Assembly (NCBI GenBank): GCA_963845565.1
Contig: CAWJSJ010000002.1
Location: 512,001 to 576,000 of the forward strand
Length of the DNA stretch: 64,000 bases
Origin: an uncultured Methylomirabilota bacterium
Lineage (GTDB): Bacteria > Methylomirabilota > Methylomirabilia > Methylomirabilales > 2-02-FULL-66-22
Direction: 5' to 3'
Shown here in pieces: positions 28,548 to 34,529 of this stretch (the stretch's first letter is position 1; each line of letters starts with the position of its first letter). The position numbers and the translations under genes were made by a program. The notes under the pieces are model-generated. The model did no database searches. It worked only from the letters and a program-made list of their open reading frames with translations, and was not told the DNA's origin.

Positions 28548-28680
28548 CGAGTGTCTCCTCGCTCCCCCGAGAGGGAGTTGTCAACGGTGGTGCGCCGGGG
28601 AGACCGGCGAGGGGAGCCGATCGCCCCGGCGCGTTTTGTGTTCGTCAGATGTTTCGCCTCACCCAGGCCACTGGGCTCGA

Positions 28681-29544: not shown

Positions 29545-29562
29545 GGCTTCCTCCTCTGAACA

Positions 29563-29592
29563 GAAAAACCCCTCGCGCCGAGAGCACGAAGG
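29563..29592 (-). terminator. Intrinsic terminator forming the expression platform of riboswitch 1
   Basis: CCUUCGUGC-UCUCG-GCGCGAGGGG then UUUUU; 5' arm overlaps aptamer P1 3' strand. Confidence 0.65.
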
Positions 29593-29700
29593 GTCTTGAT
29601 CCGCTGGCCATGCGGCCACCGCCGGGAAACCGGACCTCCCGCGCGCGGAAGATCGTGGTGACGGCTTCACCGGACCGATTGGGCGACCTACTCCCCCTTG
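29588..29700 (-). ncRNA. yybP-ykoY (Mn2+) riboswitch 1, upstream of htpX-terC-P-type ATPase
   Basis: AAGGG-GGAGUA-GGUC…GCCG-UCACCAC-GAUC…CGGU…GAUC-AAGA-CCCUU fits P1/L1/L3 consensus. Confidence 0.85.
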
Positions 29701-29708
29701 TCGATGGC

Positions 29709-29761
29709 AGCATACCCGCCGAAAACACTCATGTCAAGAAGAACTTCGCATATGCGAATAT
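29709..29761 (-). promoter_or_regulatory. sigma70 promoter and palindromic operator
   Basis: TTGACA-N17-TATGCT (29737-29709); perfect palindrome TTCGCATATGCGAA 29745-29758 between divergent htpX and arsR. Confidence 0.7.
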
Positions 29762-29855: not shown

Positions 29856-30200
29856 ATGCCGCTCCGACAGCGCGTCGTCGAGGATGTGGCCCGACTTTTC
29901 GGGGTTCTCGCCCATCCCACCCGGTTGCGTATCTTGACTCTGCTGCACCAGGGGGCACAGGACGTCTCAAGTCTGCGCGATGCGCTCGGCGTTCCGGCGG
30001 CGAACGTCTCCCAGCACCTCGCCCTGCTCCGCTCTCACCATGTCGTCAGCATGCAGCGCAAGGGAACCCATATCTTCTACACGCTCCGCGACCCCCGGGT
30101 CGCCGACATCATCAACCGTTCTCTGGACATTCTGGACGACGACGCCTCCCAGGGGCGGGCGGTGCACAAGGCGATCGAACTGTTGCGGCTCAGAACGTGA
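29856..30200 (+). CDS. ArsR/SmtB family transcriptional regulator
   Basis: FGVLAHPTRLRILTLL, NVSQHLALLR, RKGTHIFYTL. Confidence 0.92.
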   Translation: MPLRQRVVEDVARLFGVLAHPTRLRILTLLHQGAQDVSSLRDALGVPAANVSQHLALLRSHHVVSMQRKGTHIFYTLRDPRVADIINRSLDILDDDASQGRAVHKAIELLRLRT

Positions 30201-30289
30201 CCGTCCCCGCCCAAAGGGCAGGGCTGTCGCGAACGGGGACGCTTTGGGCCGCATCAAGACAGCCCGGGCCAGGGGCCCTGGGGGTGAGC

Positions 30290-30690
30290 TTGGACCCGAT
30301 GAGTCAGGCAGTCGTCGGCGCCACGGCCGCCCAGGTCTTTCTGACCGACCGCTTGGGCAAGCAGGCGTTCGCGTGCGGCGCGGTGGGTGGGCTGCTGCCG
30401 GATTTGGACGTGCTCATCTGCTCCACCTCCGACCCGCTGCTGGCGGTCGAAATGCGCCGCTCGACGTGCTCACCTCCTACGGCACGCTGTGGCTGTGGCC
30501 GTTCAGTCGGGCGCGTCTCGAGCTCGACTGGATGGCAATCGTGGACCCGCTCTTCACCATTCCCTTGCTGATCCTGACGCTGATGGGGCGGGCGTGGTCG
30601 AAGCGGGGTCCCGCACTGCTCGCGGCGGCCTTCGCGCTCGCCTACGTCGCGCTCGGGGGCGCGCTCCACGCCGGCATTCGCGCGACAAGG
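30290..30690 (+). pseudogene. Inner-membrane metal-dependent hydrolase (YdjM-like) remnant
   Basis: LDPMSQAVVGA…LLPDLDV in one frame, LDVLTSYGT.WLWPFS…IVDPLFT in another; internal deletion and truncation. Confidence 0.75.
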
Positions 30691-30708: not shown

Positions 30709-31686
30709 TCAGGTATGCGAGGATGGGGGCACGGGGCCGGGCGTTTTTCGGGTGATCCAGAGACTGGCGACCATCGACAGCGCCAGGACAATACCCACCA
30801 CCGAGAGCGCGAAACCCACGGGGATCTTGTAGATGTCGATCAGCAGCATCTTGATGCCGATGAACACCAAGATGAAGGCGATGCCGTACTTCAGGAGGTG
30901 GAAGCGGTCCGCGAGATCGACCAACATGAAGTAGAGGGCTCGCAGCCCCAGGACCGCGAACACGTTCGAGGTCAGCACGACGAAAGGATCGAGGGTCACC
31001 GCGAAGATCGCCGGAATGCTGTCCACGGCGAAGATCACGTCGGTGATGCCGATCATCGCCACCACCACGAAGAGCGGCGTGAACCAGCGCTGGCCATTCT
31101 GGACGATCGAGAATCGCTCGCCGTGATACTCGCTCGTGACGCGCAGATGCCCGCGTATCCACTTGAGGAGTGGATTGGAGTTTAAATCCGTTTCGGCCTC
31201 GGCGAACATCAGCATCTTCACGCCGGTGAACAGGAGGAACGCGCCGAACAGATAGAGGATCCAGTGGAACTTGGCGATCAGGATGGCGCCGATGAAGATC
31301 ATGATGCCGCGCAAGACGATCGCCCCGATCACGCCGATGATGAGCACGCGCCGCTGCATAGCCGGGGCCACGCCAAAGAACGTGAACAGCATCAGGAACA
31401 CGAAGAGGTTGTCGACGGCCAGCGCCTTTTCCAGCAGGTAGCCGGTGAAGAACTCTGCCGCGGTTTCGTTGGCCACCTCTCGCCCAAACCTGCCGTCGAG
31501 ATACCACCAGAGCGCAGCATTAAAGATCAGCGCCAGCGCGACCCACAGGATCGACCAGAGCAGTGCCTGGCGGAACGAGACCTGCTCGTCCTTCTTGCCG
31601 CCCAAGACCAGCAAGTCCACGACGACCGCCAGGCTCACCAGGAGCGCGAATCCTGCGTACCAGTACCAGGTGCCTACGGACTCCAT
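30709..31686 (-). CDS. TerC/Alx family membrane protein (second copy)
   Basis: EKALAVDNLFVF, TDVIFAVDSIPAI, SNVFAVLGLRALYF. Confidence 0.93.
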   Translation of the reverse strand: MESVGTWYWYAGFALLVSLAVVVDLLVLGGKKDEQVSFRQALLWSILWVALALIFNAALWWYLDGRFGREVANETAAEFFTGYLLEKALAVDNLFVFLMLFTFFGVAPAMQRRVLIIGVIGAIVLRGIMIFIGAILIAKFHWILYLFGAFLLFTGVKMLMFAEAETDLNSNPLLKWIRGHLRVTSEYHGERFSIVQNGQRWFTPLFVVVAMIGITDVIFAVDSIPAIFAVTLDPFVVLTSNVFAVLGLRALYFMLVDLADRFHLLKYGIAFILVFIGIKMLLIDIYKIPVGFALSVVGIVLALSMVASLWITRKTPGPVPPSSHT

Positions 31687-31849
31687 GGCGTCTCCCCTCT
31701 ATACCGAGACACAGCGGTGAATCGATGCGTTTCGCGCGTCGGGCCTGGGCACTCGGAGAGCTCCCAGGCCGCACACGCAGTCGCGGCGGGACGGATCCGC
31801 GGGTCAAGCTTATCCCATTGGATGGATGAAAGGCAATCGCACGAATCGC

Positions 31850-32540
31850 GACATCTAGAATGTTACCGAGAGATCCATCGTCGCGCCATTTGAGATGTTA
31901 CCCCCCCCAGGCAGCCATGGAAGGAGGGTAACGACCATGAGTCGACAAGGGAGATGGGAATACTTGAAAGCGATCTACCCGCGCTACCGGCCGTCCGGGC
32001 GAACCGAGAAGCAGCGCATCCTCGATGAGTTCTGTCGGGTGACCGGCTACCACCGGAAGTCGGCCCTGCGCCTCCCCAACGGCCCCCGCCCGCCCGGCGC
32101 CCCCGGTGCCCCGGCTGCGGCCGCCGACCTGCGGGATTCGGGTGATCCAGGTGCTGGCCGCCATCTGGCGGGCCGCCGGGTATCCCTCGTCGGTCCGCCT
32201 CAAAGCGCTGCTCCCCCTCTGGCTCCCGTGGGCGCGCCCCCGCTTCCGGCTCAGCCCGGCGGTCGAGGCGCAGTTGCGCCGCCTGAGTCCCCGCCAGATG
32301 GACCGACGGCTTGCGGCCTACCGGCGGCCCAGCCAGACCGGGCGCTACGGGCGCACGAAGCCGGGGGCGCTCCTGAAGCATCACATTCCGCTGCGAACCG
32401 ATCGGTGGGACGTCACCGTCCCCGGCTTCACCGAGATCGACCTGGTGGCCCACTGCGGCGACTCGGGCGACGGGAAGTTCGCGCACTCCCTGAACCTCAC
32501 GGACATCCACACCACCTGGGTGGAGACGCGGGCGGCCACT
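31850..32540 (+). mobile_element. Truncated, frameshifted integrase-core (ISNCY-like) transposase remnant
   Basis: YLKAIYPRY…EKQRILDEFCRVTGYHRK; TKPGALLKHHIP…PGFTEIDLVAHCG…TDIHTTW; repeated ATGTTACC upstream. Confidence 0.8.
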
Positions 32541-32788
32541 GGTGACTTTCCTCCGTTTGGCGAGCCGACGTGCACTTCGAAACCGGCCTTGCTGAACACT
32601 TGATAGGGATCGGTGTATTCGGACGCCCAGACACCCGTCGGCCGGTCGCTGCCGGGTACCCGCGCGGTGTTCGTCAGGACGATCAACACCCGCTTGGGCA
32701 GCGGGTCGGCGTTCGCGGAACCGCCGAGCACGAACATCGTGATCAATAACGCCAAAGGCAGGATCCGCATGTTTCCCTCGATGGACAT
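32535..32788 (-). pseudogene. DJ-1/PfpI (Hsp31-like) protein N-terminal fragment with signal peptide
   Basis: RVLIVLTN…TGVWASEYTDPYQVF…GSPNGGKSPV, then joins transposase remnant. Confidence 0.75.
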
Positions 32789-32971: not shown

Positions 32972-33298
32972 CTATTGCCTACGGTCTCTGCGGCCCAAGT
33001 ACACGAGGAGCGCGGCCACCGTCAAGCTCAAGGCGCCGATCGACCCCGCAGGCATCCAGTCCCGGCTCTGCCAGAACGTGTTGCCGAAGTAGACCGTCAG
33101 GGCGGTGGCGATGCCCACCGCGCCGTACCAGCCCCACCGACTGCCATGGAACATTCCCCACGCGGAGGCGAGAGCGGCCAGCCCTGCGAGACCGCCCATC
33201 ACAATGGATGCGAGGCTCCCCTGAGTGGCGTATCCAATGACGCCGCCTACCAGGAGCAGTCCGCCGTAAATTGCACCAACCGTCGCCGCAGTCTTCAT
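32972..33298 (-). CDS. TMEM14 family membrane protein
   Basis: YGGLLLVGGVIGY..QGSLASI, MPAG motif. Confidence 0.8.
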   Translation of the reverse strand: MKTAATVGAIYGGLLLVGGVIGYATQGSLASIVMGGLAGLAALASAWGMFHGSRWGWYGAVGIATALTVYFGNTFWQSRDWMPAGSIGALSLTVAALLVYLGRRDRRQ

Positions 33299-33367
33299 GG
33301 TGTCCTCCTCTGAACAGAATAATCCGGGCTAGGGCCCGTGTGCGGCCGACCCGCTATTCCTTTGCCG

Positions 33368-33550
33368 CTATTCGGTCGCCTGGGTGGGGCGGGCGAAATG
33401 CCGATATAAGTACTCCGCTTGGAGCGGAGTCAGATGGAATCGCATTCCCGCCTGATCGATCAACGCTGATCGGTCGGACTTCGGATTCGCCTTCAGTTCC
33501 CCCGCGATCCAATCCACCGCCTTCTGCACACCCGTCTCAAGCGTAACCAT
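33368..33550 (-). CDS. Small helical hypothetical protein
   Basis: RBS GGAGG; VQKAVDWI…LIDQAGMRFHLTPLQAEYL. Confidence 0.7.
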   Translation of the reverse strand: MVTLETGVQKAVDWIAGELKANPKSDRSALIDQAGMRFHLTPLQAEYLYRHFARPTQATE

Positions 33551-33704
33551 TGTCGCCTCCGCGCGCCCGATCGAACGCCGACCGGGTCAGACGTGACTTT
33601 GTGTTTGCGTCCCGCGTTATCGCATCGCGCTCCAATCGCTGCCGATTGACATGCCGTGGCCCGCAGGTCGGCGGGGATAGGGCGGAACGCTCGACGCAGC
33701 GTGG

Positions 33705-34145
33705 TCAGTCCGCCGTCAATGCGGCCTCGGGCGTCCGCCGGACCGTGAGGGTGTCCGCTTTGTGCTGGTGTTCCAGCCGTTCCGCGCACGGCACGCAGTG
33801 GATCGCCTCCGGCAGGGCAGTCAGGCGGCCGGCGGGGATCGGTTTTCCGCAAAGGTCGCAGACACCGTATGTCCCCTCTCGCACCTTGTCCTTCGCCCTC
33901 GACAGCGCCCTCAGGCGGCCCAACAAGATCTCGCGCGAGGCGAGGACCTCCGTCTTGGCCAACCCGTCCTGCATCTCCTCCAGTGCGTCCGCCCAGGGGG
34001 TGTTGTCGCCGGTCTCCTGGCCTCGCTCGCGGAGGCCGCTCCGGCGATCGAGCGCCAACAACCGCTGGCGCGTCTGTCGTGCGTCGCCGTCGAATCGCCC
34101 GGCCGACGGGCTGCTGGGATGGGCCGCATGACTCTTGCCAAGCAT
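33705..34145 (-). CDS. TraR/DksA C4-type zinc finger protein
   Basis: GTYGVCDLCGKPIPAGRLTALPEAIHCVPC; coiled-coil tip ADALEE; RBS GAGAGGAG. Confidence 0.88.
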   Translation of the reverse strand: MLGKSHAAHPSSPSAGRFDGDARQTRQRLLALDRRSGLRERGQETGDNTPWADALEEMQDGLAKTEVLASREILLGRLRALSRAKDKVREGTYGVCDLCGKPIPAGRLTALPEAIHCVPCAERLEHQHKADTLTVRRTPEAALTAD

Positions 34146-34176
34146 GGTGCGCACTCCTCTCCGGGGGCCAGCCCCC

Positions 34177-34213
34177 AAAAACAAGAACCTCTGGCGCCCG
34201 ATGGCGTCAGAGG
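34177..34213 (-). terminator. Intrinsic terminator forming the expression platform of riboswitch 2
   Basis: CCUCUGACGCC-AUCG-GGCGCCAGAGG then UUCUUGUUUUU; overlaps P1. Confidence 0.7.
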
Positions 34214-34314
34214 TCTCGATCCGCGGAATCGTGATGATCCGCCGGTGGGCCGGATCGCCTTCACGGGCGATCGTCCTGACGGCCACACCGCATGTTGCCT
34301 GATCTACTCCCCTC
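34210..34314 (-). ncRNA. yybP-ykoY (Mn2+) riboswitch 2, upstream of dksA/traR-like gene
   Basis: GAGG-GGAGUA-GAUC…GGCCG-UCAGGAC-GAUCGCC…GGCGAUC-CGGCC…GAUC-GAGA-CCUC. Confidence 0.82.
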
Positions 34315-34324
34315 GTCCATAGTA

Positions 34325-34372
34325 ACGTTACTACGGGGAGGGTCCGGTGTCAAGTTAAAATGCGAATATTCG
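34325..34372 (-). promoter_or_regulatory. sigma70 promoter and operator-like motif
   Basis: TTGACA-N17-TAACGT (34353-34325); ATGCGAATAT at 34360-34369 also present at 29752-29761. Confidence 0.65.
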
Positions 34373-34529
34373 AAGATATATAACGAGTGTCCGTACCACC
34401 TAGAGACACCCCGTTCGCCCTACTCTGTTCCGCCCGCATCGTGCGCATGGGACGAGGGGCTTCGCGTCCTTGACAGGACGGGGCCGGCGGCCTAGTGTAA
34501 TCGAAATAGCGCTCCGAGGAGGTGCCGCC

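Follow-up and report, generated by a model that had tools for sequence, protein, structure and literature searches.

On the minus strand of the 64,000-nucleotide (nt) stretch of DNA from an uncultured Methylomirabilota bacterium analysed here (the window), a riboswitch leader that almost certainly belongs to the yybP-ykoY class stands in front of a gene for a DksA-like protein. The leader consists of a sigma-70-type promoter (TTGACA at 34353-34348, a 17-nt spacer and TAACGT at 34330-34325), an aptamer at 34210-34314 composed of P1.1, L1, P1.2, a degenerate P2, P3.1, L3, P3.2 and P4, and an intrinsic terminator at 34177-34213, the expression platform, whose stem (34213-34188), with UUCUUGUUUUU after it, includes the 3' strand of P1.1. 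Behind it on the same strand lie genes for a 146-residue DksA/TraR-fold protein with a C4 zinc finger (33705-34145; Pfam PF01258, zf-dskA_traR, expectation value (E) 8.5e-13), for a 60-residue open reading frame that falls in no Pfam or NCBIfam family (33368-33550), and for a 108-residue small membrane protein of the TMEM14 family (32972-33298; PF03647, Tmemb_14, E 4.3e-16). The original prediction, read from the sequence, had named a promoter, a complete aptamer, a terminator overlapping P1 and these three genes, and all of them are present, two of the genes being identified by Pfam. The RNA class is already known. No paper pairing yybP-ykoY with DksA/TraR was found in a literature search judged mostly from listings and the openings of abstracts, although the original gene-association surveys could list such a pair, and the yybP passages of PMC11672702 contain no link to DksA.

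Structure and class of the leader RNA

In the aptamer, GAGG at 34314-34311 pairs with CCUC at 34213-34210 to form P1.1, and GGAGUA and GAGA form L1 between P1.1 and P1.2, aligning to L1 of the Escherichia coli alx riboswitch. L3 is a 7-nt bulge, UCAGGAC, at 34279-34273, and A 34277 is the putative Mn-contact adenosine. The computed fold contains P1.1, P1.2, P3.1, the bulge, P3.2 and P4 but not P2, which brings the window aptamer nearer to the three-way alx form. The determinants described in PMC6649816 and PMC13594968 are L1, the L3 adenosine, which contacts Mn2+, and the C-G pair above L3, and the window RNA agrees with them.

Related copies were collected by a pattern scan of GTDB, which yielded 41 loci with record titles mostly from Acidobacteriota and Methylomirabilota. 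These and five further copies, 46 in all and none from E. coli, were used to build a covariance model, R1. Among the 35 base pairs of the alignment, 25 show two-sided changes, and 85.7% of cells are paired, higher than in any of 500 shuffles or any slid control; P4 is aligned poorly (48% paired). The C-G pair above L3 is present in 44 of the 46 copies. L3 reads UCAGGAC or UCAGCAC in 40 of the 41 pattern-selected copies, and the Mn2+-specifying adenosine is retained also in copies found by R1 instead of the pattern. R1 recovers alx with 39.7 bits (E 5.5e-10) and mntP with 25.2 bits (E 5.9e-6), in both cases over positions 1-116 of 116, the E-values being rough because calibration was short; the window copy, itself a training-set member, receives 87 bits. 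Since a model free of E. coli sequences recovers both E. coli riboswitches end to end, the window RNA is taken to be a transcriptional ON switch of the yybP-ykoY class whose L3 resembles that of alx. The assignment made in the original prediction is thus upheld by the R1 matches, the covariation and the L1 and L3 features, and Mn2+ is probably a working ligand.

The promoter and terminator are likewise conserved. The promoter pattern lies 10-14 nt 5' of the aptamer in 18 of 22 copies from the genus, compared with 16 of 20,000 random genome positions; R1 finds 23 genus copies, in 14 of 21 genomes, one of them lacking enough upstream DNA for this count. None of 200 shuffled sequences is as stable as the terminator (z -3.21), and the fold with the terminator has a computed energy of -63.8 kcal/mol versus -56.6 kcal/mol with P1.1 forced. 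By criteria set for this analysis, the overlap of P1.1 with the terminator recurs in 38 of the 41 related copies.

Several results speak against this view of the RNA. The Rfam model RF00080 matches the window RNA neither at its gathering score nor at E≤10, and it matches none of 20 related loci out of the 41; on the letter of the original prediction, for which the lack of a covariance-model hit at this position would be a refutation, the Rfam check is therefore negative. However, RF00080 (Rfam release 15) is a model without the P1 helix, gives hits over its cut-off in just 2 of the 14 control genomes, and in a control scan of E. coli regions misses alx at E≤1 and gives mntP 41.6 bits, below the cut-off of 45. 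Because the validated alx riboswitch is missed as well, the miss in the window is uninformative and is best regarded as a false negative of the model, and surveys relying on RF00080 would undercount the class. The invariant nucleotides of the related copies prove nothing because the search pattern fixed them, whereas the variable helices were left free. The aptamer alone folds no more stably than shuffled sequences (z -1.16; 27 of 200 as stable), which is uninformative, and a simple consensus scanner missed both the window promoter, in which TAACGT agrees at 3 of 6 positions, and the terminator. Finally, yybP variants that sense other ions are expected (PMC7266159). Weak matches to other Rfam families (nhaA-II at 15 bits, microRNAs) were rejected as chance.

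The DksA-like protein and its pairing with the riboswitch

The DksA-like gene leads eight of the 23 genus copies of the riboswitch. A survey of 251 genomes of the phylum gives nine copies of close relatives of the protein (E≤1e-46) in eight genomes, every one from this genus (an unpublished genome, G080, is counted in the phylum tallies but supports no claim here), and a metagenome protein scan contributed two subfamily loci among 80 kept from at least 586 matching stretches, the other 78 serving as controls. A riboswitch detected by R1 stands directly upstream of 8 of the 11 subfamily genes with DNA context, so that the association does recur in related genomes, as the original prediction had required. 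The same model finds a riboswitch upstream of none of 108 other DksA-family loci, comprising the 78 generic DksA/TraR controls, three paralogues from the genome itself, seven weaker genus- or order-level homologues and 20 class-level homologues; for 54 of the 78 generic controls the sequence reaches 750 nt or more upstream of the first Cys, and in the RNA-positive loci the RNA lies 433-589 nt before it. Weak R1 matches near class-level homologues (best 18.8 bits) were rejected as riboswitches, being inside apparent coding sequence as read by eye. Two canonical DxxDxA paralogues (DIADQA and DPIDAA) are encoded elsewhere in the genome and have no riboswitch. TerC follows within 4 kb in six of the nine DksA-led loci; a DUF454-like gene intervenes in four of the six, and the other three of the nine offer only 1.8-2.9 kb of DNA. 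The DksA-like gene is accordingly the first gene of a TerC/HtpX-type operon and not a replacement for an exporter.

The pairing has its weak points. R1 detects no upstream RNA at subfamily genes L108 and L110 and only a decayed trace (13 bits) at L120, and seven of the eight RNA-positive loci are in the R1 training set, L119 (75 bits) lying outside it. The seven DksA-led GTDB copies are the seven genus copies from outside this genome and add no further evidence. One to two label changes on the tree are needed to account for the presence of the RNA, and because the tree allows a single origin, the eight paired cases are not independent; judged from this tree, the pairing probably arose once.

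In the AlphaFold2 model of the protein (predicted local distance difference test score, pLDDT, 77.7), helices 15-44 and 50-90 are joined by a GDNT loop and accompanied by a zinc finger and a C-terminal helix. The best Foldseek match is DksA (7khi_M, E 4.5e-5, template-modelling score 0.55), and the C4 finger and predicted coiled-coil fold place the protein in the DksA/TraR superfamily (PF01258). It remains below every NCBIfam cut-off for DksA, TraR and YteA, including those of the DksA equivalogs (43.7 versus 105 bits and 33 versus 115.5 bits). With the first Cys of E. coli DksA as anchor, a residue register could be completed, together with the finger, for 29 of 33 close relatives. In this register the residues corresponding to D71-A76 are DALEEM, which corrects the ADALEE of the original prediction, whereas its claim that the coiled-coil tip departs from DxxDxA holds for the window protein and for all but one of the 29 relatives. 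The D74 position is occupied by Asp in 5 and Glu in 24 relatives, and the A76 position by Ala in 4 and by M, L, V, I or P in 25. All four Cys are found in 28 of the 29, R125 and L126 in 29 and E143 in 27; R91, K98 and K139 are found in none, the window protein having I, A and A. The retained R125, L126 and E143 presumably contact RNA polymerase, and the lost R91, K98 and K139 are taken here to belong to site 2 for binding guanosine tetraphosphate (ppGpp). The GDNTP loop at the tip is invariant in all 29.

The ratio of nonsynonymous to synonymous substitution rates (dN/dS) is 0.08-0.54 in 28 of 28 pairs over an 80-codon core, and the DksA-like protein is under purifying selection. The idea that the odd tip reflects the decay of a dying gene was therefore rejected, dN/dS being below 0.55 in all 28 pairs and a clade with a similar tip being widespread. 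This related clade, in which the loop reads GDN[ST]P and the A76 position holds Ile or Val (20 of 20 examined), occurs in 84 of 159 genomes of a neighbouring family within the class (E≤1e-24), and its surroundings, read by eye, look like housekeeping regions, which suggests a general function. No riboswitch was found upstream of the clade loci. Their tips are acid-rich (DEVDEI, DPTEEV; L241-L257 and L259-L261), and an apparent acyltransferase gene is often adjacent.

A predicted complex of the protein with a fragment of beta' from the same genome scored 0.53 versus 0.19 for the best control, with at least 54% of contacts agreeing and a partner pLDDT of at least 66. The mark used was reached by 116 of 157 solved pairs and 2 of 215 mismatched pairs, 18 of the former and both of the latter scoring at or below 0.60. 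Since complexes of DksA with RNA polymerase have already been solved, the pass may reflect likeness only, and the model lends weak support to RNA polymerase binding.

Neighbouring genes and other riboswitch copies

The three-gene unit of the original prediction exists in the window but recurs in only one of the eight other DksA-led loci, L119; L119 and L120 both have the TMEM14 gene downstream of their DksA-like gene. In the window a weak terminator-like hairpin (33338-33325) with a ribosome-binding-site tail occupies 33299-33340 (minus strand), upstream of the TMEM14 gene, and in L119 a decayed second aptamer precedes TMEM14 (L119:1851-1962; 28.5 bits, E 2.9e-6 with R1). From this comparison, a separate riboswitch probably used to precede the TMEM14 part, the hairpin being its likely remnant, and with a former switch of its own and a weak hairpin still in place, co-transcription of the three genes stays putative. 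Another decayed copy lies before the DksA-like gene in L120 (L120:55-146), and the two decayed copies indicate that the riboswitch module is readily copied and lost. The 60-residue protein has four homologues with 74-97% identity and falls in an Atlas cluster of 1378 members (score 0.92); its gene in L119 carries an in-frame stop. Four of 22 sequencing runs were compared with the region: read-length contigs cover 34149-34300 in two and part of the DksA-like gene in one. Such contigs give no strand, ends or level and may originate from DNA, and no expression claim rests on them.

The original prediction ended at TMEM14, whereas the string of same-strand genes continues through a truncated DJ-1/PfpI gene to terC. 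The 5' part of the DJ-1/PfpI gene (32529-32788, minus strand) shares 97% identity with its L119 counterpart across 32719-32529, and the L119 gene (PF01965) extends beyond the point, near 32529, where the window gene breaks. A plus-strand remnant of a DDE-type transposase (31895-32603), identified by tblastn through 35-38% identity to plasmid genes annotated as DDE-type integrase/transposase and present as a single copy in the genome, interrupts the DJ-1/PfpI gene and separates it from terC. The TerC-family membrane protein (30709-31686, minus strand; PF03741) is encoded 2.5 kb downstream of the aptamer. Also absent from the original prediction is a second riboswitch copy with its own promoter and terminator (29560-29701, minus strand; L3 UCACCAC), 4.6 kb from the first, which heads htpX (29544-28681), another terC (28547-27504) and a P-type ATPase gene (27410-24642), all on the minus strand. 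The leaders of the two terC genes (28548-28680 and 31687-31860, minus strand) contain GC-rich hairpins as well as a word of similar sequence, GCGAAAC(G)CATC, and match neither Rfam nor R1. An ArsR/SmtB-family regulator gene (29856-30200, plus strand; NCBIfam NF033788 above cut-off) diverges from the second riboswitch promoter, and the plus-strand fragment between it and terC (30200-30690) resembles what is presumably a broken metal-dependent hydrolase gene.

A palindrome, TTCGAATATTCGCA at 34361-34374, lies 7 nt upstream of the -35 element of the first riboswitch promoter and, at the same spacing, in the htpX copy (29745-29758); it is a candidate ArsR/SmtB operator. Cysteine-free ArsR/SmtB genes diverge from three riboswitch copies (window 29856-30200, G000:C3:151731-152066 and L061:4205-4504), and these orthologues are 60% identical. 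CG[AC]ATAT precedes TTGAC at four of the five riboswitch promoters of this genome and has nine sites genome-wide, a pattern devised after these sequences had been seen and thus only a lead. Judged from these motifs, dual control of the promoter by a repressor and the riboswitch is possible. The palindromic operator was rejected as a genus-wide feature because only 2 of 22 copies match within two mismatches. A third match to the palindrome (G000:C5:748900-748913) is beside a TTGACA and upstream of an apparent pyruvate kinase gene, as read by eye.

R1 finds five riboswitch copies in this genome, leading respectively the DksA-like gene; htpX, terC and the P-type ATPase gene; two zinc-ribbon genes with a YjbE-type TerC; hflK; and a sensor kinase gene with a P-type ATPase further downstream, kinase and ATPase being identified from their translations. 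In terms of gene content, the five copies form a predicted metal and membrane-stress regulon of TerC, P-type ATPase, HtpX, HflKC, zinc-ribbon proteins and sensor kinase. The 41 GTDB copies have as their first gene htpX (24 copies), a DksA-like gene (7), a zinc-ribbon gene (3), a TerC gene (2), a DUF454-like gene (1) or an MpsC gene (1), with 3 unassigned, and TerC or a P-type ATPase occurs in 21 within the available ≤4 kb. The first genes of the 23 genus copies are DksA-like (8, one truncated), zinc ribbon (5), MpsC-family (3), TerC (2), sensor kinase (2), htpX (1), hflK (1) and unassigned (1). With htpX, hflK, zinc-ribbon, MpsC-family, sensor kinase and DksA-like genes led by copies that Rfam misses, the class seems to act as sensor for a broader metal and membrane-stress regulon across Methylomirabilota and Acidobacteriota. 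It has been described as a Mn-exporter switch, its non-transporter targets being an open question (PMC7266159).

The sensor histidine kinase, another regulatory output, is led by the riboswitch in three genomes (G000:C3:151494-151602, minus strand; L092; L093); a response regulator follows the kinase in this genome, and L3 is UCAUGCC in the two copies checked. Tandem MpsC-family (PF10057) genes are led by the riboswitch in three genomes of the genus (L031, L236 and L239), with TerC behind them in L031.

Proposed mechanism and comparison with known systems

The RNA class and structure, terminator overlap, recurrence, fold and selection were computed; Mn2+ as the ligand, read-through, co-transcription and all of the action of the protein are steps that we infer. 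In the absence of ligand, the 3' strand of P1.1 would join the terminator and transcription would stop about 140 nt after its start, whereas a metal ion bound between L1 and L3 would hold P1.1 and let RNA polymerase read through. In one Methylomirabilota genus, a non-canonical DksA-fold gene would have become the first gene of the operon, usually before a DUF454-like gene and TerC, so that excess Mn2+ would cause TerC to be made together with the DksA-fold protein. The latter would most likely dock at the secondary channel of RNA polymerase independently of ppGpp. Without the D74/A76 tip it would be a channel occupant competing against Gre factors and both canonical paralogues; alternatively, it may act through its own GDNTP/acidic tip. 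A metal ON switch coupled to a DksA-fold protein that docks on RNA polymerase independently of ppGpp and works in another way than DksA is considered the best explanation, with confidence evenly balanced between its being right and wrong. The more specific proposal, that the riboswitch turns on, alongside TerC, a ppGpp-independent secondary-channel factor belonging to an undescribed DksA clade with a GDN[ST]P tip, is possible but less likely than not. We infer, as the original prediction did, that Mn2+ may induce a modulator of RNA polymerase.

The protein might instead have no role at RNA polymerase. The riboswitch would then serve TerC, HtpX and HflKC, and the DksA-fold protein would be a zinc-finger accessory, such as a metal or redox buffer or a partner in membrane quality control, interchangeable with the zinc-ribbon proteins of other copies. 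The first-gene slot need not hold a transcription factor, since in the genus it is also filled by PF13453 zinc-ribbon (5/23) and MpsC-family (3/23) genes; the subfamily gene L108, which has no RNA, follows an M48 protease gene; and in L034 the DksA-like gene is truncated while TerC still follows. The tip and the ppGpp residues are lost, and a precedent exists in RSP0166, which is DksA-like, carries Glu in place of D74 and showed no DksA activity (PMC4010833). Against it are the retention of the long coiled coil (helices 15-44 and 50-90), of R125, L126 and E143, and of a tip loop invariant in 29 of 29 relatives; the GDN[ST]P clade with a bulky A76 residue, widespread in the class, and the weak support from the predicted beta' complex also stand against this account, which is possible but doubtful. 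At the other extreme, Mn2+ might induce a functional regulator of the DksA/TraR type that acts allosterically, independently of ppGpp like TraR, and destabilises rRNA-type open complexes. An acidic residue (D or E) is found at both D71 and D74 in all 29 relatives, four relatives have Ala at A76, one with DxxDxA, and one Glu variant of the tip works in R. sphaeroides DksA (PMC4010833). Against this, DxxDxA is an indicator of DksA function that is crippled by changing the Ala, the corresponding Ala-to-Thr substitution cutting inhibition of rrnB P1 by RSP2654 to 10-25% (PMC4010833). The A76 position in 25 of 29 relatives is M, L, V, I or P, the scores of 33-44 bits are far from the NCBIfam DksA cut-offs of 105-115, and two canonical paralogues are already present. 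With the tip altered and the ppGpp-site residues gone, classical DksA action by the window protein is unlikely, and an allosteric regulator of this kind is the least probable of the readings considered.

A further alternative concerns the RNA and is compatible with any reading of the protein: a variant of yybP architecture might respond to another signal (alkaline pH plus Mn2+, Ca2+ or Zn2+) and control a membrane-proteostasis regulon instead of Mn export. The first gene is htpX in 24 of the 41 copies and TerC in only 2; the L3 resembles that of alx, in which L3 and a three-way junction link Mn2+ to alkaline pH (PMC13594968); variants are expected, as noted above (PMC7266159); and the Streptococcus pneumoniae RNA responds to Ca2+ too (PMC11672702). 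Retention of the Mn2+-specifying adenosine, in R1-found copies as well, and the presence of TerC or a P-type ATPase near 21 of the 41 copies argue otherwise, and HtpX co-purifies with the TerC protein MeeF in Bacillus subtilis (PMC10550928), so that htpX fits the known Mn/TerC theme. This alternative is unlikely, though less so than the allosteric regulator.

If the DksA-fold protein does dock on RNA polymerase, a metal ion would be linked directly to the transcription machine by a route that bypasses both a metalloregulator and the stringent response. Transcription might in that case be reprogrammed or protected when Mn2+ is in excess, for instance through the displacement of canonical DksA or Gre factors or through shielding of the active site from Mn2+-driven misincorporation. 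Riboswitch control would, in addition, supply a first inducing condition for a member of the numerous non-DxxDxA DksA-family proteins of unknown function. The effect would extend to one genus-level lineage, probably with one origin.

Among known systems, the window RNA most resembles E. coli alx, with which it shares L1 (GGGGAGUA/GAGAC), an L3 of the form UCAnnAC containing the Mn-contact adenosine, the CGUCA..ACGAU..AUCCGG core and a P2 shrunk to a short linker; alx controls a TerC gene and, as described above, is found by R1 at 39.7 bits. The L3 sequence differs (UCAGGAC rather than UCAUUAC), as does the first gene, which is DksA-like, and alx is a translational switch (PMC12153347, PMC13594968) whereas the window RNA is a terminator switch. 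In this respect it is like Lactococcus lactis yoaB and S. pneumoniae mgtA, transcriptional ON switches in which the 3' strand of P1.1 alternates with the terminator (PMC11087558, PMC6649816), the choice between P1.1 and terminator being the L. lactis mechanism (PMC11087558). Unlike the window RNA, those two lead P-type ATPases directly, and the L. lactis aptamer has a four-way junction. The protein shares with E. coli DksA (1TJL, 7KHI) and TraR the coiled coil, C4 zinc finger and C-terminal helix, and with DksA a spacing of 40 residues from tip to first Cys and the retained R125, L126 and E143. It differs from DksA in having DALEEM for DxxDxA, in lacking R91, K98 and K139, in a second helix predicted to begin about one turn earlier, in its invariant GDNTP tip loop and in being under riboswitch control. 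Also comparable are RSP0166 of Rhodobacter sphaeroides and Atu0905 of Agrobacterium tumefaciens (2KQ9), DksA-family proteins of unknown function that also combine a C4 finger and an altered tip, in RSP0166 the Glu at the D74 position, with a canonical DksA alongside (PMC4010833); these proteins have 105-112 residues, whereas the window protein has 146 and is modelled with a full-length coiled coil and a C-terminal helix.

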